DNA from: a bacterium
GTDB lineage: Bacteria; Patescibacteriota; Minisyncoccia; Minisyncoccales; GWA2-46-15
Assembly (NCBI GenBank): GCA_030693425.1
Contig: JAUYAM010000005.1
Coordinates: forward strand, 12,950 to 76,949
Length of the DNA: 64,000 nucleotides
Reading direction: 5' to 3'
The notes under the pieces are model-generated. The model was not told the DNA's origin and did no database searches. It saw nothing but the letters and a program-made list of their open reading frames with translations. Made by a program: the position numbers and the translations under genes. Numbering within the stretch: position 1 is the stretch's first letter; every line of letters starts with the position of its first letter. Shown piece after piece: positions 534 to 53,965 of the stretch.

Positions 534-2348
534 TTAAACGTCAAAAAGAACGGTCGCCTCCCAGGAACCTTCTTGATTCTGGTGAATATCTAAACCGTGA
601 TAGGTCGCCCCCTTAATTTGTACCCCCATTTGCTTTAGCTTCCTGCCAGATAATTCTCCCTCCAGTCGTTTTTCGGATAACTGAGCCAACTCAACTCCGT
701 CATAAATTTCTTGGTTGGCTTCGCAAAGGCAAATGACTCTGCTCAGGAAATCGACTAGAAGAGTCGCTGAATCAAACGAATCGATTTCTATTTTGCGTTC
801 GACGACTTCACCGTTTTCGTCCGATTGATAATCGGCCGCAGCGAACATTCCCAGCATCGCATTCTGAAAAAGATCTTCTCTGGTTTTCCCGAAAACCCTG
901 ATCTTTAAATCCGCTTTATGCTCTAGAATCTCATACTGCTTCTCAACCTCCTCTAATACCACTTTTTGACGGCCGTTCAAAAGTGGTAGCGACGACTCTT
1001 GATATTTTTGAAGCTTCCGCATCTCTTCTCTCACTACCTGACGGTCGTCCCAGGTAATTTGTTTGCCATTGGCCAGGCACATTGATGGTTCGCAACCCTT
1101 GCCGGTAATTATCACCGTGTCGCCTGGCTGTGCTAAGCCCAAGGCCTTACTTATCGCTTGTCTCCTGTCTAAAATAACCTTTGTATCTTGTATCTGGTAT
1201 TTAGTATTTTGTATCCCTTTTTTGATATCATCTACAATTTCTTGCGGATTTTCATCGTAGGGGTCTTCGTTGGTCAAAATGATTTGGCCGCAATGTTTGG
1301 CGGCGATCTGGCCCAAAACTGGCCTTTTCCATTTATCTCTGCCGCCGCCGCAAGAACCGAGAACGCAGATTAACTTTGTATCTGGTATCTGGTATCTGGT
1401 ATCTGGTATGCGACGAGAGACAAGAGTTTGGTAAACTTTTTCTAAAGCGACTGGGGTGATGGCATAATCCACAAAAGCCTTAAAGGGCGTGAAAATAACT
1501 TCTTCCATTCTTCCCGGAACGCCCTTGAATCCTTCGAGAGCCTTGCGGCAGGCTTCTAAATCTATGCCTTGGGACCTAGCCACGGCGATGGCGGCCAAGG
1601 CATTGTAAATATTAAACTCTCCCAGAAGCCCTAAGTTAAATTCTGTATTTCCCGTAAAAAATCTGAGACCATCTATCGTTGCGCAATTTGTCGCTTCAAT
1701 AAACTTTAAGTTTTCAGTTGTGGTTTTACGCTTTGCGCTTTGCACTTTACGCTCTATACTGTATCCCCACTTCTCCCTCGCTCTGAATCGATTGAAATAA
1801 TCTATGTTTTCATCATCTAAATTCAAAATGTGGATGCCCCTGCAGGCCTTGAACAGTTTTCCTTTCACTTCCCGGTATTTCTCAAAAGAGCCGTGGCTTT
1901 CAATGTGTTCCAAGCTCAGATTGGTGAAAACCACCGCCTCAAAACCGATGAACCTATGCCGGTGCTGTGCAATTCCTTCTGAGGTGATTTCTAAAACCGC
2001 GTATTGGCAGCCGGCCTTGACCGCCCTGCTCAAAAACTGCTGGACAAAAAACCGGCCGGGCAAGGTCATGCGTTTGTTATTAACTTCTTCTTTGCCGGCA
2101 ATGCAAAATCTAATTGAGGACAAAGAGGCGACTTTAAAACCTGCCTCTTCCAGGATTGCCGCCATCATCGCCACTACGGTTGATTTTCCGCTGGTGCCGG
2201 TAACGCCGATAGTTTTAATCTTCCTGGAAGAAAACCCGTAAATTAAGGCTGCCAGAAAAGCCAGAAAGAAATGGTAAAAATCCAGCAAAAAGGCCGGTGA
2301 AACCTTTTTAAGAAAGCTTTTAAACTGGTAAAATAATGTCGATGTCAT
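534..2348 (-). CDS. murE: MurE-like Mur ligase fused to a C-terminal archease domain
   Basis: 604 aa. Mur ligase motifs: GVTGTSGKST P-loop, LEITSEGIAQHR..FTNLSLEHIESHG, GRME..VDYAITP, GGGRDKWKRP, ITGKGCE. The last ~140 aa (YEILEHKADLKIRVFGKT...IKGATYHGLDI...WEATVLFDV) fit the archease signature. Confidence 0.8.
   Translation of the reverse strand: MTSTLFYQFKSFLKKVSPAFLLDFYHFFLAFLAALIYGFSSRKIKTIGVTGTSGKSTVVAMMAAILEEAGFKVASLSSIRFCIAGKEEVNNKRMTLPGRFFVQQFLSRAVKAGCQYAVLEITSEGIAQHRHRFIGFEAVVFTNLSLEHIESHGSFEKYREVKGKLFKACRGIHILNLDDENIDYFNRFRAREKWGYSIERKVQSAKRKTTTENLKFIEATNCATIDGLRFFTGNTEFNLGLLGEFNIYNALAAIAVARSQGIDLEACRKALEGFKGVPGRMEEVIFTPFKAFVDYAITPVALEKVYQTLVSRRIPDTRYQIPDTKLICVLGSCGGGRDKWKRPVLGQIAAKHCGQIILTNEDPYDENPQEIVDDIKKGIQNTKYQIQDTKVILDRRQAISKALGLAQPGDTVIITGKGCEPSMCLANGKQITWDDRQVVREEMRKLQKYQESSLPLLNGRQKVVLEEVEKQYEILEHKADLKIRVFGKTREDLFQNAMLGMFAAADYQSDENGEVVERKIEIDSFDSATLLVDFLSRVICLCEANQEIYDGVELAQLSEKRLEGELSGRKLKQMGVQIKGATYHGLDIHQNQEGSWEATVLFDV
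1183..1215. repeat. heptanucleotide tandem array (GTATYTN x ~4.6) inside murE
   Basis: Sequence gtatctt gtatctg gtattta gtatttt gtatc. Translated on the minus strand as NTKYQIQDTK. Confidence 0.9.
1378..1410. repeat. heptanucleotide tandem array (TCTGGTA x4) inside murE
   Basis: Sequence gta tctggta tctggta tctggta tctggta tg. Translated on the minus strand as IPDTRYQIPDTK. Confidence 0.95.
1727..1754. repeat. heptanucleotide tandem array (YRCRCTT x4) inside murE
   Basis: Sequence ttacgct ttgcgct ttgcact ttacgct. Translated on the minus strand as ERKVQSAKRK. Confidence 0.8.
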
Positions 2349-19026: not shown

Positions 19027-19053
19027 GGATTTTGACAGTTTTTGCCAAGGGGA

Positions 19054-20552: not shown

Positions 20553-20626
20553 AGGGTGGAACAACAGAGAACAAACTTAGTCATATATTATCGCAATCTG
20601 CGCGTCTCGTTGGTATTTTACCAAAT

Positions 20627-20646
20627 TTACACGATCGTGGATTTTT
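20627..20646. repeat. CACGATCGTGG palindrome family, copy P1
   Basis: ttaCACGATCGTGGattttt with a central CGATCG. Related copies at 20697, 43292 and 43917. Confidence 0.8.
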
Positions 20647-20696
20647 CGTAAGCTTTTGTTCAGGAAATATCGTTTTCAAATGAGACTTTACGAATT

Positions 20697-20716
20697 TTAC
20701 ACGATCGTAGATTTTT
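20697..20716. repeat. CACGATCGTGG palindrome family, copy P2 (1 mismatch)
   Basis: ttaCACGATCGTAGattttt, 70 bp after P1 with the same flanks. Confidence 0.75.
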
Positions 20717-20921
20717 GGCAATCTTCCTGATCCTAAATTTTCTATGTCACAGGCACATTAGTTTTACTACAATTTCCCGTCTCGCAAGTCGTGCACGTCT
20801 TTTTTTAAACGATTTAACCACCTCTTCTGTGATCAGATTTTAGATGATTTAATACGGAGAGTTGTTTTGCGGAGTAAAACCTGCTAGACTGATTGATGAA
20901 ACTTTGTTATTAATTTTCGCC

Positions 20922-21056
20922 ATGTCCATTACCTACAAGCCAAAGAGAAAAAAGAGAAAAAGAACCCACGGTTTTTTGATAAGAAGCAGAACCGTCGGCG
21001 GGAGAAGAATTCTTGCCCGCCGGCGCCGGAAGAAAAGAACTAAACTCACCGTCTAA
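20922..21056 (+). CDS. rpmH: 50S ribosomal protein L34
   Basis: 44 aa: [44 protein letters not shown]. Start taken at the internal ATG of ORF 20862..21056. Confidence 0.9.
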
Positions 21057-21058
21057 AA

Positions 21059-21421
21059 ATGCTTCCTAGACTCTACCGCCTTAAAAAAGAAAGCGATTTC
21101 GATCGCCTCTTTAAAAAAGGGATGGTTAAAAGCGGCGAGTTTTTGACCATCAGGTTTATTGACAACGGCCGGGGAACCAGCCGTTTCGGATTCGTAGTCG
21201 GTAGTAAAAGTTTCAAAAAAGCCAGCTTGAGAAACAAGCTCAAGAGAAAGCTGAGAGAGGCGGTCAAGGGAAATCTAGCCCTTATTGAACCCGGAAAAGA
21301 CGTGGCTTTTGCCGCAAAAACCGGCGCAATCGACAAAAGCGTCAAAGAGACAGGAGAACATATCTTTTCTCTTTTAAATCAGGCAGGTCTCATTAAAAAA
21401 CAACAGACCCCGCAGCAATGA
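21059..21421 (+). CDS. rnpA: ribonuclease P protein component
   Basis: 120-aa basic protein directly after rpmH. Contains the RNR-like motif (SLRNKLKRKLRE). Confidence 0.85.
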   Translation: MLPRLYRLKKESDFDRLFKKGMVKSGEFLTIRFIDNGRGTSRFGFVVGSKSFKKASLRNKLKRKLREAVKGNLALIEPGKDVAFAAKTGAIDKSVKETGEHIFSLLNQAGLIKKQQTPQQ

Positions 21422-22161
21422 GTTCTAATATTCTTGGCCAGTTTTTCCAAGTTTTTTTATACCAGCCGCTTTTCAACGCCCTGATCCTTATCTACAACCT
21501 GCTGCCCGGGCACGATTTGGGCGTGGCTGTAATTATCCTCACCGCGGTCATCAAGGGCCTGACCTGGCCCTTGAACACCAAGGCATTCAGGGCCCAGCAG
21601 GCGATGGCCAAAGTCCAGCCCCGGATCAAAGAAGCCCAGCAAAAATACAAAAACAATCCCGGAGAGCAGGCAAAAGTGGTTTCAGAAATATTCAAAAAGG
21701 AAAAAGTCAGCCCTTTCAGCTCGCTGGTTCCGATTCTGATTCAACTGCCGGTTTTGATCGCCTTGTACCAGCTTTTCTTAAAAGGCCTTTGGGCGGAAAA
21801 CAACTATCTTTACAGTTTTGTCTCTAGGCCCGGGGCTTTGAGCCCGACGTTTTTAGGAATTATCAATCTTTCTCAACCGAGTTTTTTATTGGCCGTCTTG
21901 GCGGGTTTGGCCCAATTAGTTCAATCCTTAATGATGCCGAACCCAGCCGGCCAAGCCGGCAATTCCGATCCCGGGCAGAAAATGGCGCAAATGATGCAAA
22001 AACAAATGACGTTTTTATTTCCGATACTGACGGTTTTCATCTTGGCCAAGCTGCCGTCGGTCCTCGGGCTTTACTGGCTGGCAACATCAGTTTTCACGAT
22101 TTTGCAGCAATATATTTTAAACAAAAAACATGATTTCAAGGGAACAACGGGAAACAATTAA
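21418..22161 (+). CDS. yidC: membrane protein insertase YidC (short form)
   Basis: 247 aa, polytopic. Motifs PLFNAL..., QPRIKEAQQKYKNNP, LYWLATSVFTILQQ. ATGA overlap with rnpA. Confidence 0.9.
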   Translation: MSSNILGQFFQVFLYQPLFNALILIYNLLPGHDLGVAVIILTAVIKGLTWPLNTKAFRAQQAMAKVQPRIKEAQQKYKNNPGEQAKVVSEIFKKEKVSPFSSLVPILIQLPVLIALYQLFLKGLWAENNYLYSFVSRPGALSPTFLGIINLSQPSFLLAVLAGLAQLVQSLMMPNPAGQAGNSDPGQKMAQMMQKQMTFLFPILTVFILAKLPSVLGLYWLATSVFTILQQYILNKKHDFKGTTGNN

Positions 22162-22588
22162 AGAGATTATCAGGAATTTCTTTGATAAGGCGACAATCGA
22201 GGTTGAAATCAAAGAGGAAACGGTCGATGAAGACACTTTTAGGATCAATCTGGAGACTGAGTCTCCCCAGCTGCTGATCGGAGAAGGCGGGCAGACTTTG
22301 AGCGAAATCCAGCATCTCTTAAGGCTGATTTGTCGAAAAAAGATCGGCCCCGGTTTTTACTTGGACATCGATGTCAGTAATTACAAGAAGAAAAAAGCGG
22401 TCTATTTGGAGGAATTAGCCAAGACCGCTGCCGACGAAGTCGCTTTGACCAAAAAAGATAGAGAACTTTTGCCGATGTCTTCGCAAGACAGAAGAATCAT
22501 TCATCTAGTTCTCAGTCAGAGGGCAGATGTTATTGCCGAAAGCAAGGGCGAGGATCCGGACAGAAGAGTGATTATCAGGCCGGCCTAG
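22130..22588 (+). CDS. jag: Jag/KhpB-like KH + R3H RNA-binding protein
   Basis: 152 aa. KH-like LLIGEGGQTLSEIQHL and R3H-like MSSQDRRIIHLVL, in the canonical position after yidC. Confidence 0.8.
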   Translation: MISREQRETIKEIIRNFFDKATIEVEIKEETVDEDTFRINLETESPQLLIGEGGQTLSEIQHLLRLICRKKIGPGFYLDIDVSNYKKKKAVYLEELAKTAADEVALTKKDRELLPMSSQDRRIIHLVLSQRADVIAESKGEDPDRRVIIRPA

Positions 22589-28297: not shown

Positions 28298-30085
28298 TTA
28301 CTCTTCTGATTCTTGTTTAGCTCTTCTAATTTTCAAAACTTCTTCTGGAGAAGTGGTAATAATTTGGTCTTCGGCGTAAGAAGCGACAATGCGGATGGCA
28401 ACGTGTTTTTGGCCGGCGATGAACACTCCCTCGCCGATGCCAGATTGCAAAAGGAGCATTTTTTCCTCCTCGGTCAGGTTGAAAGTTTTTTGGACTTGGT
28501 TGACTATGGCCGGGCTTTGCTTCAAGAGAAGCTGGAGCGAGGAGTTGGCGACAATGGCCAAACCGTAGCTTGATCCCAGGAAGTCGCCGACGTCCTGAGT
28601 GATAGTTGTTAATCCCAGCCAGTATTTTCTCGCTCTTTTGGCCACGCCAAAAAGAAAAGAGGCGCCATCGTTAGACTGCATCAGCCACCAGGCCTCATCG
28701 ATCAAGAGCATCCTTTTTTTGAGCTGGGAGCGGATCTTGTTCCAGATATACCTCATAACTACGAACATCGCCATTGGCCGAAGTTCATCCTCCATATCTC
28801 TGATGCCGAAAACGACCATGTTTTTGTCCAGAGAAAGATTGCTCGGCTGGTTGAAAAAGTTGGCAAAAGTCCCCTGGGTGAACTTTCTCAATCTTCTTAC
28901 CAAAGAATCCCCTCCCTCCATGGTTTCGAGAACCGATTCCAAATCGGACATAAGGGGGATGTTTTCCTGCCACTTTAAGGGATCGGATTCCGGGGTAATG
29001 TCTTTGGCGGCATAGGTTTCGGCTATGGCCCGGTCGATAATGGCGTCTTCTTCTGCGGTTAAACCGCCGAGCATAAGTCGCAAGAGCCCCACGAGGTTAA
29101 TGACGTTAGATCTAAGAACGTCTTCGGGATCTTCATCTTCCCGGGGCAGAGGCAGGTCAAAAGGGTTTATATGGTTTTCCGAGCTCAGGGAAATGTTGAA
29201 GAACGATCCACCGACGGCATCAACCAGGAACTTATATTCGTTCTCCGGGTCGATGACAATCGTGTCGACCCCGGTCATCAGAGACCTTAGGATTTCAACT
29301 TTCGCGAAGTAGCTTTTACCCCCACCCGATTTACTGAAAATTAAGAGGTTCGCATTCTCTAAACTAAAGCGGTCAAAAAGAATCAGGGAATTATTGTGCC
29401 GGTTGATGCCGTAAAGAGTCCCTTCGTTTGAACTTAAGTCAAAAGAAATGAAGGGAAAAGTTGAAGAAAGCGGGCTGGTGTTCATCGGCGTGTGGATGTC
29501 TAACAAATCCAGACCGTAAGGAGAAGTAGAAATGAATCCTTGTTTTTGTTGGAAAAGGGCGGGCTTGATGAAAATCAGTTTTCCCTCGAGGATTGATCTC
29601 AAGGTCAGCTCGACGTCGCGGAGTTGTTTTTCCGTGTCAGCGTAAATAGTAATATAGAGGCCGAACCTGAACATTTTTTCCTGGGCGGTTTGCAATCCGT
29701 CCCTCAAAGCTTCCATGTCTTGGAAAGCGGTTTCCAGGACAGGATCTCGGATGAGTCCTTTTTCCTGCCGGTCAATCAGCTCCGCTTGGACCTCGGTCAC
29801 TTTTTTTCTCAATAATTTCAAGATCAAGCCGGTATCAATCGGGTGGATGAAAAAACTAATGTCCATCGGCGTTTCGAGGTTGATGATGGGCGAAAACCAG
29901 CCGGTGGAAAGGTACCGGGGATAAGAAAAGGCGAAAAAGGATTTGGCGAGTTTTTCCCCGATCTTCAAAAAGCTCTGCTGGATTTCAATCGAAGACGGGG
30001 CGATAAAATCCCTGACGTTGAGAATCTCGGCTTCGAAGATTTTTTCCGGCAAACCCCGGTTTTTTTTAAAAAAGGGAATGTTCAT
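28298..30085 (-). CDS. VirB4/TraC/TrsE-like type IV secretion ATPase
   Basis: 595 aa. P-loop FSKSGGGKSYFAK, VIDPENEYKFL, INPFDL, Walker B MLLIDEAWWLM, and an N-terminal YPRYLSTGW-type VirB4 domain. Confidence 0.8.
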   Translation of the reverse strand: MNIPFFKKNRGLPEKIFEAEILNVRDFIAPSSIEIQQSFLKIGEKLAKSFFAFSYPRYLSTGWFSPIINLETPMDISFFIHPIDTGLILKLLRKKVTEVQAELIDRQEKGLIRDPVLETAFQDMEALRDGLQTAQEKMFRFGLYITIYADTEKQLRDVELTLRSILEGKLIFIKPALFQQKQGFISTSPYGLDLLDIHTPMNTSPLSSTFPFISFDLSSNEGTLYGINRHNNSLILFDRFSLENANLLIFSKSGGGKSYFAKVEILRSLMTGVDTIVIDPENEYKFLVDAVGGSFFNISLSSENHINPFDLPLPREDEDPEDVLRSNVINLVGLLRLMLGGLTAEEDAIIDRAIAETYAAKDITPESDPLKWQENIPLMSDLESVLETMEGGDSLVRRLRKFTQGTFANFFNQPSNLSLDKNMVVFGIRDMEDELRPMAMFVVMRYIWNKIRSQLKKRMLLIDEAWWLMQSNDGASFLFGVAKRARKYWLGLTTITQDVGDFLGSSYGLAIVANSSLQLLLKQSPAIVNQVQKTFNLTEEEKMLLLQSGIGEGVFIAGQKHVAIRIVASYAEDQIITTSPEEVLKIRRAKQESEE

Positions 30086-30090
30086 TGTTC

Positions 30091-30120
30091 TACGAATATA
30101 CGAATACGCTAATATGCTAA
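30091..30120. repeat. TTCGTA/ACGAAT word array abutting the virB4-like start codon
   Basis: tacgaatatacgaatacgctaatatgctaa. On the sense (minus) strand it reads TATTCGTATATTCGTAGAACA-ATG. Compare TATTCGTATAAATTCGTAATTCGTAGAATTCGT-ATG in front of dnaA. Confidence 0.8.
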
Positions 30121-30131
30121 CAGCTAAAATA

Positions 30132-30791
30132 CTAAAAGCTCGTTGGTTTTTCTTGGGTGAGTTCAGGAGGAATTTCGGGGTAATAGCCGACTTCGGCTTC
30201 GCTTGGATGGTGGATGGCCCAGAAAAACTCGATCAATTCCGGAGTCGCCAGAGGAACGACCTGCAGCTCCATTCTTTTTAATCCCAAAGCCAAAAATTCC
30301 ATTCTTTGCCAGAGCTGGGACTTGCATCTCTGGAACTGGTCTTCGGTCAAAGTCGGGAATTTAGGCATTTTAAAAAGGCTGCCTGAAGCGGACACTCCCT
30401 GGGCTTCCAAGATAGTGTAGGGGATGACCATAAAAAAAGTTTTGCTCATAATCGTTCCTCCCTCGACCAATCCCTTGATGAAATCATAGTAGCTGGCGGT
30501 TTGGGTTTTCATCAGCTCGCCGAGCTGAAGGTCCTCCAAACGTTTTATCTGGTCCAGATAGCCGGTAATGTTCAGTTTTCTCGATTGGACAATGATCTGG
30601 ACGGAAAAATCCAGGGAGTTTATAAAGCTCTGGAATTGGTAGATGATCGCCTGCTGCTCTTCGTCCGACTTCAAAGCAAAGTTCAGGGAGGAGATCATCA
30701 TTACTCCCCGGAGGCCCTTATTCTTTAGAATAATCATCCCCTCCCTAATCTGATCAATCTCTAAAAAGTCTTGAGTTGAAGATTTGGCCAT
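30132..30791 (-). CDS. stand-alone VirB4 N-terminal-domain-like protein
   Basis: 219 aa. SSLNFALKSDEEQQAIIYQFQSFINSLDFSVQIIVQS resembles, from memory, the first ~200 aa of Gram-positive conjugative VirB4 homologues. It has no P-loop. Confidence 0.45.
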   Translation of the reverse strand: MAKSSTQDFLEIDQIREGMIILKNKGLRGVMMISSLNFALKSDEEQQAIIYQFQSFINSLDFSVQIIVQSRKLNITGYLDQIKRLEDLQLGELMKTQTASYYDFIKGLVEGGTIMSKTFFMVIPYTILEAQGVSASGSLFKMPKFPTLTEDQFQRCKSQLWQRMEFLALGLKRMELQVVPLATPELIEFFWAIHHPSEAEVGYYPEIPPELTQEKPTSF

Positions 30792-30794
30792 AAT

Positions 30795-31220
30795 TTATCT
30801 TTGGGTGTCGACTCGGTTCGACATTTCTTTTAAGCGGCTTCTGCCGATCACTTTCAGTTCGGGCGAAATTATCTTCGGTTTGACTACCCTGCTTAAATCT
30901 TCCGTTTTTTTCCAGACAATTCTCGGCGGCAGCTCTTTTTTCTTCCAGAGATAGATTCTTGAGGAAACAAAAAAACCGAAGAAATTTCCGAGGATGACAG
31001 GAAACGACCTTCCCTCGACTCTTAAAAAGGCCAGGGCGGCGGTGACGAGGGCGATGACGCCGCTGGCCAGGAGAAAGAGAAAGAAATTGGTTTTTGCTAC
31101 GGAAAGATAGACAAAACCGATAAAAGCCCCTCCGATCGCCAGCAAGATAAACTGCTTGAAAGTGAAGGGACCGGCAATCTTTGTCTCTTGGTCAATGAAT
31201 TGAGGAACTTGAAACCGCAT
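30795..31220 (-). CDS. PrgI/VirB3-like small membrane protein
   Basis: 141 aa. MRFQVPQFIDQETKIAGPFTFKQFILL start plus two TM helices, located just upstream of virB4-like genes. Confidence 0.6.
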   Translation of the reverse strand: MRFQVPQFIDQETKIAGPFTFKQFILLAIGGAFIGFVYLSVAKTNFFLFLLASGVIALVTAALAFLRVEGRSFPVILGNFFGFFVSSRIYLWKKKELPPRIVWKKTEDLSRVVKPKIISPELKVIGRSRLKEMSNRVDTQR

Positions 31221-31230
31221 TTCTTAGTTG

Positions 31231-31255
31231 GCTAGCGGCTAGCGTCTAGCGGCTA
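31231..31255. repeat. heptamer array (GCTAGCG x3.5) flanking the four-helix-bundle gene
   Basis: gctagcg gctagcg tctagcg gctag. It contains CTAGCGTCTAG, whose reverse complement recurs at 31638-31648. Confidence 0.85.
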
Positions 31256-31617
31256 GTTTTTAATTCCAATTTTTTAATAAGAGTATTTAACATTTTTTGG
31301 ACTTCTTCGAGAAGATTTTCTGCTCTTGCGTAATTATTCTCGCGATATAAGTCTCCGGCGATTATAAGCTGGGTTTCTAATTCGGCCGAAGAGCCATAAG
31401 CAATATGCAAGAATTGTAAAAACTCTTTTAAGGTTCTTCTCAAATGTCCCTCGGCGATATTAGAAGGAATCGAAACGGCTGCTCTCCTCATTTGAATAGA
31501 CAACCCATAAACCTCAGCATTCGGGAACTTGCCGGTAAGAATATAAATTTCTTTTACCAGCTCGATCGCCCTGTTCCATACCGTCAGTTCTTTATAAGAC
31601 TTTAAATACATACGCAA
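31246..31617 (-). CDS. four-helix-bundle protein (23S rRNA intervening-sequence protein family)
   Basis: 123 aa. YKELTVWNRAIELVKEIY...FPNAEVYGLSIQMRRAAVSIPSNIAEG...GSSAELETQL is the classic signature of this family. Confidence 0.85.
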   Translation of the reverse strand: MRMYLKSYKELTVWNRAIELVKEIYILTGKFPNAEVYGLSIQMRRAAVSIPSNIAEGHLRRTLKEFLQFLHIAYGSSAELETQLIIAGDLYRENNYARAENLLEEVQKMLNTLIKKLELKTSR

Positions 31618-31623
31618 AAGGAT

Positions 31624-31648
31624 CTAGACGCTAATCCCTAGACGCTAG
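31624..31648. repeat. CTAGACGCTA(G) repeats flanking the four-helix-bundle gene (inverted relative to 31231-31255)
   Basis: ctagacgcta atcc ctagacgctag. Confidence 0.8.
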
Positions 31649-31654
31649 TCGCTG

Positions 31655-32071
31655 TTATTCAATAGGTTCTCGGTAAGCGTCTGGTTTTGCTGGCGGCTTG
31701 GGAACCGTTTCTGTTTTTTCCGTCGCTTCTTCTCCTGCGCCAGCGTCAGTTTTATGGAGGCTGGCCAGGCTTCTTTTTATCGGAGCAAAGATAAAGCGGT
31801 TTATTTCTTGAGAGATTGTTTTGGCGGTTTCTTCTTCCAAGGTTACCTCCTTTTCCAGAGACGGCAGAAATTCTCCCGGTGGCAAGAGCCCGTAAAGAAC
31901 GTCTCTGACCAATGCGGAAATTTTAGTCGCCCTTTCGTCAAAGATTTTGTTGTTGTCAAAAATCTGCTCAAGGGCGTTGAGATTTTCCTCGGAGTCAATT
32001 GCTTGCTTGATGTCTTCCGGCAGCTGAGAATAAAGCTTCATTATCTGCTCTCGAGTGTATTTTTTGATCAC
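31655..32071 (-). CDS. hypothetical protein in the T4SS-like operon
   Basis: 138-aa soluble ORF with an acidic/Pro-rich tail. No family recognised. Confidence 0.5.
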   Translation of the reverse strand: MIKKYTREQIMKLYSQLPEDIKQAIDSEENLNALEQIFDNNKIFDERATKISALVRDVLYGLLPPGEFLPSLEKEVTLEEETAKTISQEINRFIFAPIKRSLASLHKTDAGAGEEATEKTETVPKPPAKPDAYREPIE

Positions 32072-32114
32072 GGCAGTTTATTTTAATAAAATAATCGCAT
32101 TCCGATTAATCCGG

Positions 32115-35042
32115 CTATGCTAATCTCCTTAACACGCCTTTTTCTATTCTGTATCTTCCTCCCCTAATGCGATCCTTGATATCCAGAGTGTCGGTGTCTT
32201 TACGGACAATGCCTGCATCGTATTTTACCCGGATCGGCCTGCCTTGGCGCGTCGTATCCTTTAGGAACATGGGGGGGGCTTTCTCGTCTTTTGCCCTAAT
32301 TCTTTCCTGTCCGGACATCGGGCTGGGGTATCTTTCATAAGGAGAATTTGTTCCGTCTTCCCATTTCAGGGTAGTTGCCCCCTTGACCGTGCCGGCAACC
32401 TCGACCCCTGGTTTAAGCGAATGAGGATCTAACTGTTGCCGTGGATCGTTTGTGGCAGGAGAGAACGATGAAGGGCCTGTCGCTGGCGGTTGGGGGCTAG
32501 TCGGCGGTTGTGTCCCGATAGGAGGAATTGGCGGCGTTCCGCTAACAAATTTTCCGCCCGTTGGAGTTTTTATAGGCTTTATTCCAGAGGGAACCGCTGG
32601 GACCGCTAATCCGGACGGGGTTGTTACGTAACCAGTAGTCGCTCCAGAAACTGGCGTTGGAGGTGCCACAGGCGGGACAACAGGCGGAGGCGGTGTCGGC
32701 GGCGGAGGTACATACGGCGGTCCTCCAGCTCCGCAGCGCGGGCACGGTATTCCTGAAGGAGTTGTCCCCCCACAAAACGGACAAGTGGTTATCGTATGCA
32801 ACCAGTCTGGCTTGGCGATTTTGCCGTTAGCGAAATTTACATATTCATTAAGTTTGCCACGATCATTTAGCAATACTGGCTGCATGTTTTCATTAACAAA
32901 CGGCTGGTTATTTTGATCTTTCGCTACCTGGAATCCATACATATCCTGGTTGTGATTGATTGTGTCTCTTAACACTTGGGAATTTCTCTTTGCCATGTTC
33001 CAGCTGCCGTTGCCCTCGACCCAGGCGGCGAGCTTGCCTCCTCGCTCCGGGCCGAATTTTTCATAAAAAGCTTTGATGTGACTTGAACCTCTGAAGCGGG
33101 CTATTTTTGACAAAATTAGAGGATCGTCCGCCGATTCTCCCGACAACTGGCGTATGGCTTCTTGGTCTAAGCCCTTGACCGTTCTATCAAGAGACCAGGT
33201 TTGGGCAATGGCCTGGTAAAGAGGATCAGTTTTTCCGGCGGTGATAACTTGGTCGATAGTTTGGCTTAAGTCGGCCAATCGGGTAGTTCGCCATCCGGAA
33301 AACTCTTTATCCAGATACGCAACTGTCGCTTTTTCGTCGTCGGTTTGGTTTGCCACCGCTTTTGTTGATAATTCCCGAAACTCTTTTAAGACGGAATCCA
33401 TTTCGTCCTTATGTTCTTTCTTTGACGGATCGAGAAAGGTATCCCAGACGACTTTCTCTCTTGACAGCTGGATTACATCAGAAGTCGTTTCCCTAAGATG
33501 TCTTCTGGAGTATTTAGCCTGGGCGGTCAACCCCTTTTTCCTTAATTCTTCAAGAGCGGCATCCCCGGGCTTAAACAGGCCAGCCTCTCCTTTTTTCTTG
33601 GAAATCAAAGCAGTCGCCCCCGCCGCCCATAGATCTCTTTCTAGAGGTAAGAACCTGCCTTGATTTACGAGTAGTTTGGCTCCGGTATAATCTTCCTGGT
33701 CGACTAGCTGGTTGAGAGTTTTATCTTCCATAATTTTATCAATTTGGGTAGGAACGTCAGCTTTCTGTTTTTTCGCCTCAAGGGCGCCCCTTTTAGCCAG
33801 CCATGTCAAGCCCTTGCCGGGCAGGCTTTTGCCAAAATCCGCTTTCTCCGCGCCCTCAATAATACTAGTTGCGGTTTTAGTCGAGAGAATTTCTCTTTTA
33901 AGGCGTTCGGTTCCCCTGCCAATCACCTCTTTGCCTTTTGCGGTGCCTTTTTTAATGCCTTTCATGGCTAGGCCTTGTACGCCCCTGGCCGCGCTCGGGC
34001 CAAAGCGTTTGGCCGTAGACATGATGGCGCTGGCGCCGATAGCGCCGCTTGACAGACTGCCAAAAAAGCCAAAAGCAAGCAGAGCCTGGACAACCACATA
34101 CCTCATGATCGTGTTAAAGTCAATGACCGGCAGGAGCCCGAGAGTGAGAGCGCTTATCCCGGCGGGAATGGGCGGGATTGTCGGGTCGGTATCCACCAGC
34201 ACGAGCAGCTGTTCGGCCAGATAAAGGAAAAAAGCGGCGGAAACGCCGACAAACGACCATTGGAGAAACTGGTTCCACCAGGCGGAAAAGTATTTCCTAG
34301 TCGTCGGTAAGACATTAGCGAAGAAAGCCAGCGGAGAAAGAATGACCAAAATCCAGATGGCGACATAGCGCATTATGAAAAGGAAAGAGTAAAGAACCAG
34401 AAATAGGGCGGTAACGGTATTGAAGAAACCCATGGCCATGCTTCTGAAGATTATATCTATATGACCGGTCAGGTAACCGGGGAGGCTGGTAAAAGAGTTT
34501 TTGAGAGCGGCGTATTGAGAGACAGAGATCTCGACCAATGTATCAAAACTGGAAACGCCCTCGATAAAGAAATTCATGACAATATTGGCAGCGTCGACAA
34601 TCAGGCCGCAGATGGCCGGGGTGAAGTTCACCAAAAGGATCATCGCTATCAGCAATGGCAGGGTTTTTTTGGCGTGATATTCTCCTAATCTCAAGGCAGT
34701 CGCCAAGCCAATGACAACCAAGGCGAAAATGAATCCCATATTAGCCAGGTCCCTGGTGATCGCCCAGCCAGGAGCGACAATGCCGCCGGAAGTGTAAGGA
34801 AGAGTGATAAAGTACGGGCTGCTGACCAGTTGAAACAACAGGTTGGCGAATAATACAACCACCAAGCTGACGCCGACAAAAAACTGGAGGCTCATGGCGA
34901 GAATCGAACCGCCGATGGCTGCGGCTAAGACTCCGAAATAGGCCTGGCCCTGACTAAGAGGAATAGCCAGCCCGAACAGGACTAAGGCTAGCAAAGAGAC
35001 TTTTGTTGATAGCGAAACTTTTTTAAATAAAGAGTTTTTCAT
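32115..35042 (-). CDS. giant polytopic VirB6/TrbL-like membrane protein with zinc ribbon and poly-proline C-terminal region
   Basis: 975 aa. About 8 TM helices in the first ~370 aa, a ~330-aa helical soluble region, CPFCGG..CPRCG, then PPYVPPPPTPPPPVVPPVAPPTP and a ~150-aa C-terminal domain. Confidence 0.6.
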   Translation of the reverse strand: MKNSLFKKVSLSTKVSLLALVLFGLAIPLSQGQAYFGVLAAAIGGSILAMSLQFFVGVSLVVVLFANLLFQLVSSPYFITLPYTSGGIVAPGWAITRDLANMGFIFALVVIGLATALRLGEYHAKKTLPLLIAMILLVNFTPAICGLIVDAANIVMNFFIEGVSSFDTLVEISVSQYAALKNSFTSLPGYLTGHIDIIFRSMAMGFFNTVTALFLVLYSFLFIMRYVAIWILVILSPLAFFANVLPTTRKYFSAWWNQFLQWSFVGVSAAFFLYLAEQLLVLVDTDPTIPPIPAGISALTLGLLPVIDFNTIMRYVVVQALLAFGFFGSLSSGAIGASAIMSTAKRFGPSAARGVQGLAMKGIKKGTAKGKEVIGRGTERLKREILSTKTATSIIEGAEKADFGKSLPGKGLTWLAKRGALEAKKQKADVPTQIDKIMEDKTLNQLVDQEDYTGAKLLVNQGRFLPLERDLWAAGATALISKKKGEAGLFKPGDAALEELRKKGLTAQAKYSRRHLRETTSDVIQLSREKVVWDTFLDPSKKEHKDEMDSVLKEFRELSTKAVANQTDDEKATVAYLDKEFSGWRTTRLADLSQTIDQVITAGKTDPLYQAIAQTWSLDRTVKGLDQEAIRQLSGESADDPLILSKIARFRGSSHIKAFYEKFGPERGGKLAAWVEGNGSWNMAKRNSQVLRDTINHNQDMYGFQVAKDQNNQPFVNENMQPVLLNDRGKLNEYVNFANGKIAKPDWLHTITTCPFCGGTTPSGIPCPRCGAGGPPYVPPPPTPPPPVVPPVAPPTPVSGATTGYVTTPSGLAVPAVPSGIKPIKTPTGGKFVSGTPPIPPIGTQPPTSPQPPATGPSSFSPATNDPRQQLDPHSLKPGVEVAGTVKGATTLKWEDGTNSPYERYPSPMSGQERIRAKDEKAPPMFLKDTTRQGRPIRVKYDAGIVRKDTDTLDIKDRIRGGRYRIEKGVLRRLA

Positions 35043-35075: not shown

Positions 35076-36119
35076 TCATTCTAGCACAAAAGTTTTAGTC
35101 AAAGCCAGCCAGTTTTCAAGGCTGAGGGATTCAGCCCTGGCATTTGGTTCCAGCTTGTTTCCTAAAAGCCAATTCTTAATCTGACTTTTTGGCAACCCAA
35201 GTCCGGAGGCCAAGTTGTTAACTAGCTGTTTTCTCGGCTGGGAAAACCCAGCCTTCACAATTTTAAAAAATAATCTTTTGTTCTTCTCATTGAGAAAACA
35301 GTTATTTGTTCGGGTAATCTGTATGCCTTTTTCACGACCGTGAGATTCTTGCACCGATTGTTTTTGCCATTTTTGCGGAGTGATCTTTATAATAGCCGAG
35401 TCTACCTTGGGCTTTGGCCAAAAAGCGTTTTTAGAGACATAGCTGATAATTTTTGCCTCTGCGTAAAATTGAACCGAAATTGCCAGGAGATTCATTTTGG
35501 GCTTGGCACCCCGTCCTGAGCCCGTCGAAGGACAAATTCTTTGAGCCACTTCTTTTTGGACCATTAAGACCATCAGCTCGGGCGGGCAAGGCAATTCAAG
35601 CAAACAACGGATAATATGAGTAGCGGCATAGTAGGGCAAATTCGCCACGACCTTGTATTTAGTATCTGGTATCTTGTCCCTCGATTTCACTCGGGACAAC
35701 CCTGAGCTTGTCGAAGGGTTGTATCTAGTATTCGACGGCGATCGTATATTTTTCATACTAGATACTAAATACTCAATACTAGATACTAGTTCGCGGGCGT
35801 CGCCTTCAACAATTTCCACGTTTCTATTATCTTTAAACTTTTCTTTGAGCAAAGGTATCAGCCGGGGGTCTTTCTCTATGGTGACCACCCGACCCGCTTT
35901 TTGAGCCAGTTTTTCGGTCAAAACCCCCAAGCCCGGGCCGATTTCCAGGACCAGGTCGCCGGTTTTCAAGTCGGCAGCCTCGATTATCTTGTTCAAGACG
36001 CTTTTTTGGCGGAGAAAATGCTGACCAAGGTGCTTTTTGGGTTTAAGAACTCGACCAGCCTCGCTGGTATAGAGCTGGAGAACCTGTGGATGGCTGATTT
36101 GACTAGGCGGTTTTCTCAT
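35076..36119 (-). CDS. rsmA: 16S rRNA (adenine1518/1519-N6)-dimethyltransferase with two in-frame repeat insertions
   Basis: 347 aa (typical length ~260-290). Motifs LGQHFL, LEIGPGLGVLT, VANLPYY. The extra 45-aa and ~8-aa segments coincide with the repeat elements. Confidence 0.9.
   Translation of the reverse strand: MRKPPSQISHPQVLQLYTSEAGRVLKPKKHLGQHFLRQKSVLNKIIEAADLKTGDLVLEIGPGLGVLTEKLAQKAGRVVTIEKDPRLIPLLKEKFKDNRNVEIVEGDARELVSSIEYLVSSMKNIRSPSNTRYNPSTSSGLSRVKSRDKIPDTKYKVVANLPYYAATHIIRCLLELPCPPELMVLMVQKEVAQRICPSTGSGRGAKPKMNLLAISVQFYAEAKIISYVSKNAFWPKPKVDSAIIKITPQKWQKQSVQESHGREKGIQITRTNNCFLNEKNKRLFFKIVKAGFSQPRKQLVNNLASGLGLPKSQIKNWLLGNKLEPNARAESLSLENWLALTKTFVLE
35505..35531. repeat. short GC-rich element inserted in-frame in ksgA
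   Basis: ggcaccccgtcctgagcccgtcgaagg, encoding PSTGSGRGA on the minus strand. It shares the CTGAGC..GTCGAAGG core with the 35655-35789 element. Confidence 0.6.
35655..35789. mobile_element. 135-bp MITE-like insertion in-frame in ksgA (inverted heptamer arrays flanking two hairpins)
   Basis: Left arm gtattta gtatctg gtatctt. Core GTCCCTCGAtttcacTCGGGAC plus AACCCTgagcttgtcgaAGGGTT. Right arm catacta gatacta aatactc aatacta gatactag, the inverted heptamers. 135 nt equals 45 codons. Confidence 0.75.
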
Positions 36120-43352: not shown

Positions 43353-43901
43353 ATGGTTAAACTTAATACTTTAACGAAAAAAGTTTTACTTTTATTGGCT
43401 GGCGGATTAGCGCTTGGTTGTACTTATCATCCTGGCAGACAGTGGAAAATTATAAGGTCGGTTAATCGAGAATGGAAAAAAATTAATGAAAAAGAGCTTT
43501 GGCGCGAAATAAGGAAACTTTATCGTTCTAGGCTGGTGGAGAAGAAAGAAAATCCGGATGGCAGCCTTACTTTTGTTTTAAGCACGAAGGGGAAAATTAA
43601 AACCTTGAATTTCCGGTTTGAAAAAATTTGCTTGCAAAGGGAAAACTGGGATAAAAAATGGCGCTTGGTGATTTTTGATATCCCCGAGAGATTAAGGCAG
43701 GCAAGAGATGCTTTAAGGGAAAAGTTAAAACAACTTGGTTTTTACGAGCTCCAAAAAAGCGTTTTCGTTTTTCCTTATGAATGCGAAGACGAAATTGATT
43801 TTGTGATTGAATTTTTTGAGATGCGTCAATATGTCAGAACTATTTTGGCAGAGAAAATCGATAACGAGCTTCATCTGAAAAAAATATTTGACCTGATTTA
43901 A
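43353..43901 (+). CDS. PaaX-like / Cas2-fold regulator-like protein
   Basis: 182 aa. WDKKWRLVIFDIPERLRQARDALREKLKQLGFYELQKSVFVFPY matches the PaaX middle-domain pattern (W.G.W..V.F.IPE..R..R..L...L...GF). Confidence 0.5.
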   Translation: MVKLNTLTKKVLLLLAGGLALGCTYHPGRQWKIIRSVNREWKKINEKELWREIRKLYRSRLVEKKENPDGSLTFVLSTKGKIKTLNFRFEKICLQRENWDKKWRLVIFDIPERLRQARDALREKLKQLGFYELQKSVFVFPYECEDEIDFVIEFFEMRQYVRTILAEKIDNELHLKKIFDLI

Positions 43902-49501: not shown

Positions 49502-51010
49502 ATGACAATTCCCAAAGAAGTAAAAAAGGTGATTTTGAGCCTAGAAAAAGCCGGATTTAAGGCTTATGTTGTCGGCGGTTGCACCAGGGATTTTTTGCAG
49601 GATATCGAGCCCAATGATTGGGATATTGCCACTTCAGCCCGTCCAGAGGAAATTCAGAAGATCTTCCCTGACAATTTTTACGAAAACGCTTTTTTGACGG
49701 TTACGATTCTGACAAAAAACAGGAACCCGCGGCTTAAAGAGATCGAGATCACTACTTTTAGATCTGAAGCCAAGTATACGGATAAAAGGCATCCCGACGA
49801 GATTAGATTCGCCAAGACTTTAAAAGAGGATTTGGCGAGAAGGGACTTTACTATCAACGCCATCGCCCTGAAAATACCAGATACTAGATACCCTCCTTCG
49901 CCAAAGCTTCGGAGGGCAGGCAAGATACTAGATACTAAATACTCGGTTAATGATCCCTTTAACGGACAAAAGGATTTAAAAGATAGAATTATTAGGGCGG
50001 TCGGCGACCCGAACGAAAGGTTTAATGAAGACGCTTTGCGCCTGATGAGAGCGGCCCGGTTGGCAACGGCTTTGAACTTTAAGATCGAACCGAAAACCAA
50101 GCAGGCGATTATCAAGAATGCCAGCTTACTGAAACTAATTTCTAAAGAGAGAATCCGCGACGAGTTTATCAAGACGATTATGACCGCAGAAGCGGCCAAA
50201 GGAATAGAACTTCTCCACGAACTCGGGCTTTTAGAGTTCGTGGCGCCGGAACTGGAAGAGGGCATCAACGTCAGCCAAAACAAACATCACACCTATAACT
50301 GCTGGGACCACAACGTTCTTTCCCTGGATTATGCGGCCAAGAAAGGATTCGGCCTTGAAGTTAGGCTGGCCAGCCTGTTTCACGACATCGGCAAGCCTCG
50401 CGCCAAACGCGGCCAAGGGCCCAACGCCACTTTCTACAACCATGAAGTTATCGGCGCGAGAATGGCCCAAGAAATTCTAGAGCGCCTGAAATTTCCCCGA
50501 GAACTGGCAGGAAAAATCGTTCTCCTGGTCAGATACCACCTTTTCTACTACAACGTCGGCGAGGTCGGCGAGAGCTCGGTTAGACGCCTGGTCAGAAACG
50601 TCGGTCTGGAGAATTTTCAGCAATTGCTTGAGGTGAGAATGTCAGATAGAATCGGATCAGGAGTTCCCAAAGCCGAGCCTTATAAGCTGCGACATTTGAA
50701 GTATATGGCAGAAAAGGTGTCCCAAGATCCCCTGTCTGCCAAGATGCTTAAAGTTGACGGCAACGACGTTATGGAGGCCCTAAAGATTAAGCCTGGACCT
50801 AAGGTTGGCCAGGTTCTATCCGTGCTCTTGGAATTAGTGATCGAAGATCCCAAGAACAACAAAAAGGATTATTTGAAAAAAGAAATCAGTCGGTTGGGCG
50901 CTTTATCCGATAAAGAATTGGGGCGGCTGGCAGAGAAGGCGGAAAGAGAAGTTCAGGATATAGAGCAGAAAAAAGACGAGATGACGAAAGAGAAATATTG
51001 GGTCACATAA
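49502..51010 (+). CDS. cca: CCA-adding enzyme / poly(A) polymerase family with HD domain, carrying an in-frame repeat insertion
   Basis: 502 aa. GGCTRDFL, NDWDIAT, RRDFTINAIA, HD domain (HDIGKP). Confidence 0.9.
   Translation: MTIPKEVKKVILSLEKAGFKAYVVGGCTRDFLQDIEPNDWDIATSARPEEIQKIFPDNFYENAFLTVTILTKNRNPRLKEIEITTFRSEAKYTDKRHPDEIRFAKTLKEDLARRDFTINAIALKIPDTRYPPSPKLRRAGKILDTKYSVNDPFNGQKDLKDRIIRAVGDPNERFNEDALRLMRAARLATALNFKIEPKTKQAIIKNASLLKLISKERIRDEFIKTIMTAEAAKGIELLHELGLLEFVAPELEEGINVSQNKHHTYNCWDHNVLSLDYAAKKGFGLEVRLASLFHDIGKPRAKRGQGPNATFYNHEVIGARMAQEILERLKFPRELAGKIVLLVRYHLFYYNVGEVGESSVRRLVRNVGLENFQQLLEVRMSDRIGSGVPKAEPYKLRHLKYMAEKVSQDPLSAKMLKVDGNDVMEALKIKPGPKVGQVLSVLLELVIEDPKNNKKDYLKKEISRLGALSDKELGRLAEKAEREVQDIEQKKDEMTKEKYWVT
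49877..49945. mobile_element. ~69-bp heptamer-flanked hairpin insertion in-frame in cca
   Basis: ccagatactagatac-CCCTCCttcgccaaagcttcGGAGGG-caggcaagatactagatactaaatact. It encodes PDTRYPPSPKLRRAGKILDTKYS between the conserved INAIA and DPFNG. Confidence 0.7.
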
Positions 51011-53182: not shown

Positions 53183-53965
53183 TTGAATGCGGCGCCAATC
53201 ATGAATTTACCAAATCATATTGTTATTATGCCCGACGGCAACCGGCGTTGGGCAAGAAAGAAGGGGTTGCCTCCTTTTTTTGGTCATCGCCAAGGGGCCA
53301 AGACACTTGAGAAAATTTTAAAGGCTGTTTTAGAATTAAAGATTCCTTATTTTACTTTTTGGGGAACCTCGCTTGATAATGTTACCAAAAGGTCATCTTC
53401 GGAAGTTAATTTTTTATTCAAGCTTTTTGAGCAGCATTTTAAAAAATTGGCCAGGAGCAAAGAAGTCCATCAAAATAAAATTAAGATCAATGTTATCGGC
53501 CGTTGGAGAGAATTATTTCCTGAAAGTGTAAAGCGGGTGATGGAAGAAGCGATTTTAAAAACCAAAGATTATAAAAATTATCAATTAACCTTTTTAATGG
53601 CTTACAGCGGGATTGATGAAATGACGAGTGCAATCCAGAGGATTGCTAAAATCAAGAATCAATTCTTCGATAAACTTAGAATTAATCCCGAGCAAAGTCG
53701 AGTGGGTCAAAAATCAAAATTCAAAATTGATGAAAAATTGATTAAGAACAATCTCTGGACAAAAGATTTGCCGGCGGTTGATTTAGTCATTCGTACTGGC
53801 AGCGAACAGGATAATTGGTCCCATTTATCATCAGGAGTGATGATGTGGGACGTGGCTGACGCTCAGATATATTTTACTAAAACTCTTTATCCTGATTTTT
53901 CCGTGGCGGAATTTAAAAAAGCCGTAGAGCAATATAGCCAAACAGAAAGAAGAATGGGAAAGTAG
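53183..53965 (+). CDS. uppS: isoprenyl transferase (undecaprenyl-diphosphate synthase family) with degenerate in-frame repeat insertion
   Basis: 260 aa. HIVIMPDGNRRWA, FWGTSLDN, LVIRTGSEQ. The first ATG is at 53201. Confidence 0.9.
   Translation: MNAAPIMNLPNHIVIMPDGNRRWARKKGLPPFFGHRQGAKTLEKILKAVLELKIPYFTFWGTSLDNVTKRSSSEVNFLFKLFEQHFKKLARSKEVHQNKIKINVIGRWRELFPESVKRVMEEAILKTKDYKNYQLTFLMAYSGIDEMTSAIQRIAKIKNQFFDKLRINPEQSRVGQKSKFKIDEKLIKNNLWTKDLPAVDLVIRTGSEQDNWSHLSSGVMMWDVADAQIYFTKTLYPDFSVAEFKKAVEQYSQTERRMGK
53654..53728. repeat. degenerate heptamer-flanked insertion in-frame in uppS
   Basis: aagaatcaattc-ttcgataaacttagaattaatcccgagcaaagtcgagtggg-tcaaaaa tcaaaat tcaaaat. It encodes KNQFFDKLRINPEQSRVGQKSKFK. 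Confidence 0.55.

Follow-up and report, generated by a model that had tools for sequence, protein, structure and literature searches.

Repeats of two kinds, probably nested in a translated linker of the KsgA protein of a Patescibacteriota bacterium

The ksgA (rsmA) gene considered here, which codes for a ribosome methylase, lies on a 64,000-nucleotide stretch of contig JAUYAM010000005.1 (assembly GCA_030693425.1, positions 12,950 to 76,949 of the forward strand), which is referred to throughout as the window and which derives from an uncultured, ultra-small bacterium of the Patescibacteriota, within the candidate phyla radiation (CPR). Between the GD and NLPYY motifs of its product lie 45 extra codons, and the analyses described below suggest that these codons probably consist of two unrelated repeats, selfish or neutral in kind, one nested in the other: an inverted pair of heptamer arrays and a doublet of GC-rich hairpins. 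The nest occupies a peripheral linker, where KsgA appears to tolerate it, and is most likely translated with the protein. Because relatives of the window lineage carry the inverted arrays without the hairpins, the 135 bp in question are composite, made up of two repeat systems that are independent of each other.

The window protein matches the Pfam family RrnaAD (E=3.9e-53), is 100% identical to a protein from a metagenome-assembled genome (MAG; NCBI MDP3093852.1), and has its closest relatives among proteins of the Parcubacteria group (CPR/Patescibacteria). The gene and its four insert sites are as follows.

35076..36119, minus strand: ksgA/rsmA coding sequence, 347 aa, an open reading frame (ORF) with four lineage-variable inserts
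36048..36080, minus strand: site 0, an N-terminal 33-nt insert with the hairpin ACCAGC-GAG-GCTGGT, encoding LQLYTSEAGRV
35655..35789, minus strand: site 1, the 45-codon composite insert in the linker from the GD motif to the NLPYY motif
35513..35533, minus strand: site 2, a single hairpin GTCCT/TCGACGGGCTC/AGGAC of the doublet family, within the extra codons for PSTGSGRGA (35505-35531)
35274..35375, minus strand: site 3, a 34-aa insert at the junction of the two domains, common to the homologues P0002 and P0011, with model confidence (pLDDT, see below) under 50

A first-pass annotation of the window had placed exactly 45 inserted codons between GDARE and KVVANLPYY, and residues 111-155 (peptide LVSSIEYLVSSMKNIRSPSNTRYNPSTSSGLSRVKSRDKIPDTKY) do indeed separate these motifs by that number (35655-35789). 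The net gain at the site is nevertheless approximately 30 residues rather than 45, because a native linker, present in all KsgA proteins at a length of 11-17 residues, already occupies it. The second short GC-rich element that the same annotation had noticed about 120 bp away, encoding PSTGSGRGA, likewise proved real and corresponds to the site-2 hairpin, GTCCT-GAGCCCGTCGA-AGGAC. Two of the five GC-rich hairpins in ksgA were dismissed, as they encode conserved motifs. Over the whole window, GC-rich hairpins are modestly enriched (71 vs 31-58 in shuffled sequences).

The insert at site 1 had been described as inverted GTATCTR arrays with two GC-rich hairpins, a description confirmed by its anatomy and by the array statistics given below. 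Its parts are listed here together with their occurrence in relatives, the DNA of six of which (L001-L006) was compared with the window at the insert sites, codon by codon.

35754..35789, minus strand: left heptamer array, about five CTAGTAT-type (AGTATCT-type) units, encoding LVSSIEYLVSSM
35733..35753, minus strand: 21-nt spacer AAAAATATACGATCGCCGTCG, common to L001 and absent in L002 and L006
35721..35732, minus strand: two inner units (AATACTAGATAC) belonging to the right-hand array, in the opposite orientation to the left one
35676..35720, minus strand: 45-nt hairpin doublet, absent at site 1 in L001, L002 and L006
35698..35720, minus strand: hairpin A, AACCCT/TCGACAAGCTC/AGGGTT, one half of the doublet
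35676..35697, minus strand: hairpin B, GTCCC/GAGTGAAATCGAG/GGGAC, the other half
35655..35675, minus strand: three outer units of the right-hand array, AAGATACCAGATACTAAATAC, encoding KIPDTKY

The arms formed by the inverted arrays are 18-33 nt long and 73-94% complementary, and the RNA of the entire insert is predicted to fold into a long branched stem (-56.6 kcal/mol, z = -6.1). The tetranucleotide ACAA is present on either side of the doublet, although it also forms part of the doublet stem.

Comparison with the relatives separates the two components in time. L001, L002 and L006, whose KsgA proteins are 52-56% identical to that of the window (BLAST), possess inverted GTATCTR arrays at site 1 and lack the hairpins; it follows that the arrays came first and that the doublet arrived later, in the window lineage only. 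Arrays of other units occupy the same site in the remaining relatives (CTAGACG in L004, AAATTCC in L005 and AGCTACC units in L003). L002 and L005 share the site-2 hairpin, in the corresponding position, and L001, L003, L004 and L006 lack it. An assembly artefact was considered and rejected, as arrays are present at the same site in independent NCBI, JGI, ENA and Logan assemblies. Turnover at these sites is recent, as illustrated by L001 and L004, which are 97% identical in VirB4, 97% in a TraC-like protein, 91% in PrgI and 90% in an M23 peptidase, and whose ksgA genes are about 85% identical at the DNA level: the site-1 array has been wholly replaced between them, a clean 33-nt N-terminal hairpin insert is present in L004 only, and a heptamer array lies upstream of virB4 in L004 and is missing from its close relative L001.

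These comparisons bear directly on the proposal, also made in the first-pass annotation, that the 135 bp are a single unit resembling a MITE (a miniature transposable element with inverted repeats), inserted whole by a transposase and bounded by the heptamer arrays as terminal inverted repeats. The inverted arms, 81-94% complementary in the arrays, the folding of the whole segment as one branched stem (z = -6.1) and a length divisible by three are what such an element might present, yet the arrays of L001, L002 and L006 exist without the doublet, those of L002 and L006 also without the spacer, and the doublet stands alone both in uppS and in other phyla. Moreover, no second copy of the whole 135-bp unit is present in the 64-kb window, no transposase was found among the window ORFs scanned against Pfam, and inspection of the insert junctions by eye, not backed by a systematic test, revealed no clear target-site duplication. 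Insertion as one unit is thus improbable, and that part of the earlier interpretation has been abandoned in favour of a nest of two repeat systems.

Consistent with repeated filling of the same position, KsgA homologues differ widely at the insert sites. Homologues were aligned in a set of 24 and then in a set of 120 (CPR); in the latter, the site-1 linker, counted from the GD motif to YKVVANLPYY, is 11 to 53 residues long, with a median of 21.5, while lengths run from 4 to 28 in a second loop and from 9 to 102 at the two-domain junction. The window protein carries inserts at all three variable sites and at a fourth near the N-terminus, and the extra residues are not conserved across the homologues, an alignment that the first-pass annotation had proposed as a check. 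Identities between residues seven positions apart at site 1 number 280 in these homologues against 125.7 ± 11.5 in shuffles, and since three heptamers of nucleotides make up seven codons, a seven-residue spacing is the signature of a heptamer array. On this sequence evidence, the carriage of heptamer arrays in the site-1 loop is a general habit of the group. Further KsgA homologues have unrelated peptides of the GC-palindrome type at the same variable sites. At the protein level, the CPR homologues P0037, P0083, P0078 and P0019/P0041 each display one such peptide at two loops of a single protein; LPLCKRGIKGDLEQNKILPASPAGGP, for instance, appears both at site 1 and at site 3.

The heptamers extend well beyond ksgA. 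A 13-mer composed of two heptamers has 17 matches in the window vs 0.46 expected, and period-7 arrays of at least three copies number six vs none in shuffles, with none at periods 5, 8, 10 or 11; at a looser threshold there are 16 period-7 arrays vs 3.2, and 11 of the 16 are located inside genes. The recurrence of the building blocks in murE, cca and uppS, which had been noted previously, is borne out, so that the element is not unique to ksgA and appears elsewhere in another reading frame. The relevant features are listed below.

1181..1214, minus strand: GTATCTN array in murE, IQNTKYQIQDTK, in frame
1376..1409, minus strand: perfect 4.6-copy GTATCTG array in murE, RIPDTRYQIPDTK, likewise in frame, with 100% matches
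1723..1748, minus strand: TTTRCGC heptamer array in murE, its unit family recurring at ksgA site 3 of L001 and L004
20406..20438, minus strand: ATTCGTA heptamer array (period 7) abutting the dnaA start codon
30086..30110, minus strand: heptamer units of the ATTCGTA type, just upstream of the start codon of the virB4-like gene, a shorter remnant where L004 has a fuller array of the same unit
49872..49943, plus strand: in-frame cca insert, direct AGATACY arrays (49872-49891 and 49921-49943) around the hairpin CCCTCC..GGAGGG (49891-49916)
53650..53728, plus strand: uppS insert, AATCAAN heptamers around a decayed doublet copy (53660-53712), read in another frame as FFDKLRINPEQSRVG

Against solved structures these segments behave as additions: the murE inserts align as gaps with solved MurE, the uppS insert as gaps with UppS 3wyi, and the cca insert as a gap of about 19 aa with the CCA enzyme 6ibp. 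The hairpin region of cca folds no better than shuffled sequence (z = 0.15). An N-terminal insertion in NusA was also considered and set aside because it is not repeat-like. MurE (window 534-2348, minus strand) has an archease domain (PF01951, 6.4e-29) fused at its C-terminus (residues 472-604), an unusual combination, and dnaN, dnaA, rnpA, yidC and jag/KhpB (window 17688-22588) mark the replication-origin region, with an intergenic segment at 20407-21058.

Several properties of the repeats are compatible with residence in coding sequence. The unit GTATCTG is stop-free in all six frames, whereas GTATCTA would put a stop every 21 nt, and because three heptamers span 21 nt an array encodes the same seven-residue repeat in every frame. 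The would-be TAG codon of the site-1 array is GAG in the window and GAA, GAG or TTG in relatives (four lineages), an avoidance of stop codons that speaks for selection to keep the frame open and translated. The ksgA doublet is open in two of three frames on its own strand, and the core of hairpin A in two of three on the other, and the inserts whose lengths were checked (135, 45, 33 and 27 nt) are all multiples of three. A different role for the arrays is conceivable, in which they act as contingency loci whose 7-nt slippage shifts the frame and switches the host gene off and on. The perfect 4.6-copy murE array would lend itself to this, heptamers not being multiples of three and array lengths varying among relatives; one unit of slippage in that array (1376-1409) would shift the frame. 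Since murE, cca and uppS are normally essential and most genic arrays are imperfect, which suppresses slippage, switching of this kind is very improbable.

The second component of the nest, the hairpin doublet, belongs to a family with a wide distribution. A search of one genome per species with the pattern TCGACAAGCTCAN{4,12}CCCGAG proved too permissive, gaps of 8 or more being chance matches in GC-rich coding DNA, and only copies with a gap of about 4-8 and a second hairpin were kept. The resulting 46 copies are from Verrucomicrobiota/Opitutales, Acidobacteriota/Vicinamibacterales, Planctomycetota, Desulfobacterota, Dehalococcoidia, Omnitrophota and one Kerfeldbacteria (CPR) MAG; among the loci examined (L007-L126) the doublet measures 45-50 nt (for example L015 4746-4796, L084 2770-2820 and L016 4889-4939). 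Several copies occur in one Verrucomicrobiae MAG. The loops are fixed, as TCGACAAGCTC and its inverse form GAGCnnnGTCGAG, and the stems are paired in 93.3% of cells, with 53 double-sided changes, compared with 15.9 ± 6.2 for shuffled alignments and no more than 11 for slid partners. A covariance model assigns 62 bits to the ksgA doublet, a copy that was itself in the training alignment, and 31.4 bits (E=6.4e-6) to the uppS copy, which lay outside the training set and has compensated stems. The site-2 hairpin of ksgA is a half match (22.5 bits), and those of L002 and L005 were matched too. The 11-nt loop motif by itself is unenriched in the window (3 matches vs 3.56 expected), and significance is reached solely with the full hairpin or with the covariance model.

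Translation of the doublet yields NPSTSSGLSRVKSRD in ksgA, as opposed to FFDKLRINPEQSRVG in uppS, from the same strand in a different frame; because the two genes read different frames, the doublet is an element at the level of DNA, not a protein module. In ksgA, cca and uppS alike the hairpins lie between heptamer units of one orientation, and direct heptamer arrays flank a few doublets in other phyla (L103, L114 and L015). Rfam identified no family among 18 doublet loci from other phyla.

A further association concerns the arrays rather than the doublet. Elsewhere in the window lies a small gene enclosed by inverted heptamer arrays, whose product is a four-helix-bundle protein (TIGR02436, 2.3e-35; Pfam 23S_rRNA_IVP, PF05635, 5.7e-35).

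31230..31653, minus strand: four-helix-bundle gene cassette, with the gene at 31246..31617 (123 aa)
31230-31256 and 31624-31653, minus strand: the cassette arrays, GGCTAGC/GTCTAGC and inverse CTAGACG respectively, flanking the gene

Syntenic cassettes are bounded by inverted GTATTTN arrays in L001 (7489-7922) and inverted CTAATTA arrays in L004 (14040-14510), and the start and stop codons of both genes lie inside the arrays. The L001 and L004 proteins have no detectable similarity while their flanks are near-identical up to the neighbouring genes, and the whole cassette has therefore been exchanged between the two. In L001, moreover, the ends of the cassette are identical to those of the ksgA arrays at 26/38 and 31/39 positions, and both belong to one heptamer family. 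At the syntenic slot in L003 (6698-6811), four tandem units of about 23 nt, AAGCTTGATTCTAACGAAATAAAC, are present and no gene.

When metagenome contigs were searched with an alignment built from the three cassette proteins, 80 loci were recovered (L127-L206; GC 30-64%). Both flanks were available at 71 loci, which were compared with 226 controls: a period-7 array lies within 90 nt of the four-helix-bundle gene at 37 of the 71 loci (9 of the controls), and at 42 (7 of the controls) the two flanks have in common an exact inverted match that is 10 nt or longer. Array density is 4.18 per kb near gene ends vs 0.23 per kb elsewhere, and the unit varies by locus, mostly in 3-5 copies. The hairpin-loop motif was not found beside four-helix-bundle genes, and the doublet and these cassettes are therefore regarded as independent systems.

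The ksgA element has inverted arrays and no PF05635/TIGR02436 gene, and judged from these shared features the term MITE-like would be defensible only in the sense of cassette ends without a gene. A broader and more tentative proposal, to which we would give distinctly less than even chances, is that inverted heptamer arrays define a new class of exchangeable cassette, that the four-helix-bundle protein (related to Avd and to proteins of 23S rRNA intervening sequences, IVS) is the usual cargo and binds or maintains the arrays, and that gene-less miniatures, further colonised by the pan-bacterial doublet, are a main source of variable loop insertions in essential proteins of the CPR.

The cassettes also raise the possibility that the insert acts in RNA, as an rRNA intervening sequence does: the arrays would pair in the transcript and the stem would be cut, for example by RNase III, so that ksgA is down-regulated or the insert removed. 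The very stable predicted stem (-56.6 kcal/mol, z = -6.1) accords with such a role, as does the inverted-array architecture around genes of the 23S_rRNA_IVP family, known from rRNA intervening sequences including those of the CPR (PMC11270868). Cutting by RNase III, however, leaves an mRNA unjoined, so the reading frame would not be restored, and a frame open over 45 codons, insert lengths divisible by three and a would-be stop mutated in four lineages are expected only if the insert is translated. As to splicing, which the first-pass annotation had suggested excluding, Pfam scans of KsgA report methyltransferase families only, Rfam reports no match to an intron or any other family in the insert at E<=10, and the only Rfam matches in the window are four tRNAs; 45 codons are in any case too short for a canonical intein. 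Removal or control at the RNA level is accordingly an improbable explanation of the insert, with about the same standing as whole-unit transposition, though by analogy an RNA-level effect such as RNase III cutting may occur as a side effect.

Structural modelling is consistent with tolerance of the inserts by the protein. In an AlphaFold (AF2) model of the window KsgA, 170 core residues have a predicted local distance difference test score (pLDDT) above 90, while scores fall below 50 at residues 1-16, 126-151, 201-204 and 254-274. Foldseek comparison of the model with solved KsgA structures gave target-normalised template modelling (TM) scores of 0.74-0.86, and in alignments with solved KsgA the insert sites correspond either to gaps or to the native linker of 16 residues. 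The model thus portrays the inserts as low-confidence peripheral loops on an otherwise intact fold, which bears on the structural question raised in the first-pass annotation. Residues 108-126 form a predicted helix that replaces a native one.

This helix is one of two observations that would favour an adaptive explanation, under which the insert is a lineage-specific extension of KsgA, contacting for example CPR-specific features of the ribosome, and the repeats merely encode the useful peptide; the other is that the peptide VSSIEYLVSS..NTKYKIPDTKY is kept at site 1 in several lineages whose KsgA proteins are 52-63% identical. Adaptation of KsgA does not readily account for the same DNA units in murE and cca, at the start codons of other genes and around the cassette gene, nor for an unrelated array at the site in close relatives and unrelated peptides over a range of 11-53 aa, nor for the differing frames of the doublet in ksgA and uppS and the low confidence (pLDDT <50) of residues 126-151. 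An adaptive origin is consequently unlikely, if slightly less so than either the transposition of a single unit or an RNA-level role.

Taken together, the data are best accommodated by the nesting of two repeat systems in a tolerant linker, and the course of events reads as follows. Firstly, an inverted pair of GTATCTR arrays has occupied the linker since before the window lineage split from relatives whose KsgA is 52-63% identical; arrays of many different heptamers are found in the same linker across the CPR, differing even between close relatives. Secondly, inverted heptamer arrays are the usual ends of small four-helix-bundle gene cassettes, one of which was swapped whole between close relatives, and the ksgA element would be a gene-less miniature of such a cassette. 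Thirdly, the 45-nt doublet of inversely oriented hairpins later entered the right-hand array, in the window lineage only. Fourthly, frame-open repeats can survive at any position where a loop is acceptable to the protein, provided that they add a multiple of three nucleotides. If, as seems to be the case, only frame-keeping insertions in tolerant loops survive, this would explain why the same loops are hit repeatedly. Lastly, splicing would play no part, the fold would be kept, and the inserts would persist as a helix extension and floppy loops, most likely translated and tolerated. Candidate means of movement for either repeat are hairpin-directed single-strand transposition, and recombination or template switching between arrays.

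Several observations weigh against parts of this scenario. The first half of the insert is a predicted helix in the place of the native one, so that, on this model, some of it may have become necessary to the structure. The link to miniature cassettes draws on shared architecture, with the same unit at both places only in L001, and in the window itself the cassette unit GTCTAGC differs from the GTATCTR of ksgA. The doublet has a low copy number here, two doublets and one half in 64 kb, and heptamer flanks accompany only a minority of the doublets in other phyla (at a strict threshold, 2/26 vs 1/466 controls). Translation of the inserts is deduced from their sequence, no transposase is found among the approximately 58 window ORFs scanned against Pfam, and we know of no DNA-processing activity of the four-helix-bundle protein.

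Other genes of the window deserve brief mention. A type-IV-secretion-like cluster adjoins ksgA (window 28298-35042), with synteny in L001, L003 and L004, and comprises genes for a VirB4/TraG-type ATPase, a TraC-like protein, PrgI and a TrbL-like membrane protein of 975 aa whose tail is rich in proline. One protein with a homing-endonuclease-associated repeat (PF18780) and another with a PaaX_M/Cas2-like domain are encoded at 51073-51999 and 43353-43901, respectively, neither linked to the repeats. Tandem H+-pyrophosphatase genes are situated at 55412-59344, the second being far more divergent from the Pfam model (2.9e-95 vs 2e-260).

In-frame selfish repeats in housekeeping genes at this frequency are, to our knowledge, documented mainly in Rickettsia, and the same outcome is reached here in an unrelated genome-reduced lineage, the CPR, with different repeats and in at least four housekeeping genes within 64 kb. 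Heptamer arrays fit coding regions unusually well, since three units of 7 nt span 21 nt and so yield the same peptide in every frame. The refilling of the same two or three KsgA loops with unrelated repeats, seen over 120 homologues, could explain part of the odd loop insertions of CPR proteins, and such loop repeats can mislead alignment, annotation and structure prediction. The association between arrays and four-helix-bundle genes provides a testable handle on the role of proteins of the 23S-rRNA-IVS/Avd-like type and on the origin of bacterial heptanucleotide repeats, while the ksgA case illustrates how selfish repeats can settle in the tolerant loops of housekeeping proteins.

Comparison with known systems reveals partial resemblances in each case. 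MITEs share terminal inverted repeats and the lack of a transposase gene, 135 bp being too small for any gene; they differ in that no second unit exists in 64 kb and that the only partner whose ends are similar encodes a four-helix-bundle protein instead of a transposase. REPINs are doublets of short GC-rich imperfect palindromes, known as REP (repetitive extragenic palindromic) sequences, in inverse orientation (PMC3116915), and REP super-families possess a GTAG or CGTC head (PMC3733652). The 45-nt inverted doublet is similar in its several dispersed copies and covarying stems. In contrast to REP sequences and REPINs, however, its copies lie inside genes rather than being extragenic, they number 2.5 in 64 kb, it conserves loops rather than stems across phyla, no GTAG/CGTC stands beside the stems, and no gene for a REP-associated tyrosine transposase (RAYT) or of the IS200/IS605 type was found among the window ORFs scanned.

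Heptanucleotide repeats, including the short tandemly repeated repetitive (STRR) sequences of heterocystous cyanobacteria and the GGGNATC repeats of Xanthomonas and Nostoc, are tandem 7-nt arrays that are over-represented in non-coding and under-represented in coding DNA (PMC4692102). The arrays described here are likewise tandem 7-nt arrays, typically of 3-5 copies, dispersed over the genome, and GGGATTC/GAATCCC arrays flank some doublets of other phyla (L103, L114); those of the window, by contrast, are mostly genic and built of different units. Paired inverse arrays around a cargo were not described in the literature searched, nor was the association of heptamer arrays with four-helix-bundle genes; the doublet sequence was not found there, and searches on heptamers and hairpins, and on CPR with MITEs or Rickettsia palindromic elements, returned nothing relevant. 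A further lead is the small dispersed repeats (SDR) of Nostoc, which Elhai et al. in 2008 are reported to have described as 21-27-nt hairpins inserting into other repeats and occasionally into genes. Such insertion would resemble the hairpin nested in an array here; sequences and host phylum differ.

Intervening sequences of 23S rRNA similarly have inverted repeats that form a long stem around a small cargo, and CPR bacteria have four-helix-bundle ORFs within insertions in their rRNA (PMC11270868). The ksgA element differs in having no gene and in lying within a protein-coding gene, where cutting of the stem would destroy the message. As far as could be checked, neither the nesting of the repeats nor heptamer arrays neutral to frame, nor a doublet of pan-bacterial distribution, nor the four-helix-bundle link has been described previously.

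The nearest parallel is that of Rickettsia palindromic elements (RPEs), palindromic repeats of about 100-150 bp that are found in frame in unrelated housekeeping genes, where they are translated and tolerated (PMC10969869). The 135-bp ksgA insert resembles them in being in frame, open over 45 codons and compatible with the host fold. It is set apart by its CPR host, its makeup as a nest of two systems and the lack of a conserved peptide, a distinction drawn on host and frame. The parallel to RPEs that had been suggested at the outset therefore stands as a functional analogy and fails as a family assignment: RPEs are the closest functional counterpart of the ksgA insert, which appears to lie outside their family, and in-frame insertion itself may be viewed as an RPE-like phenomenon in a new lineage.

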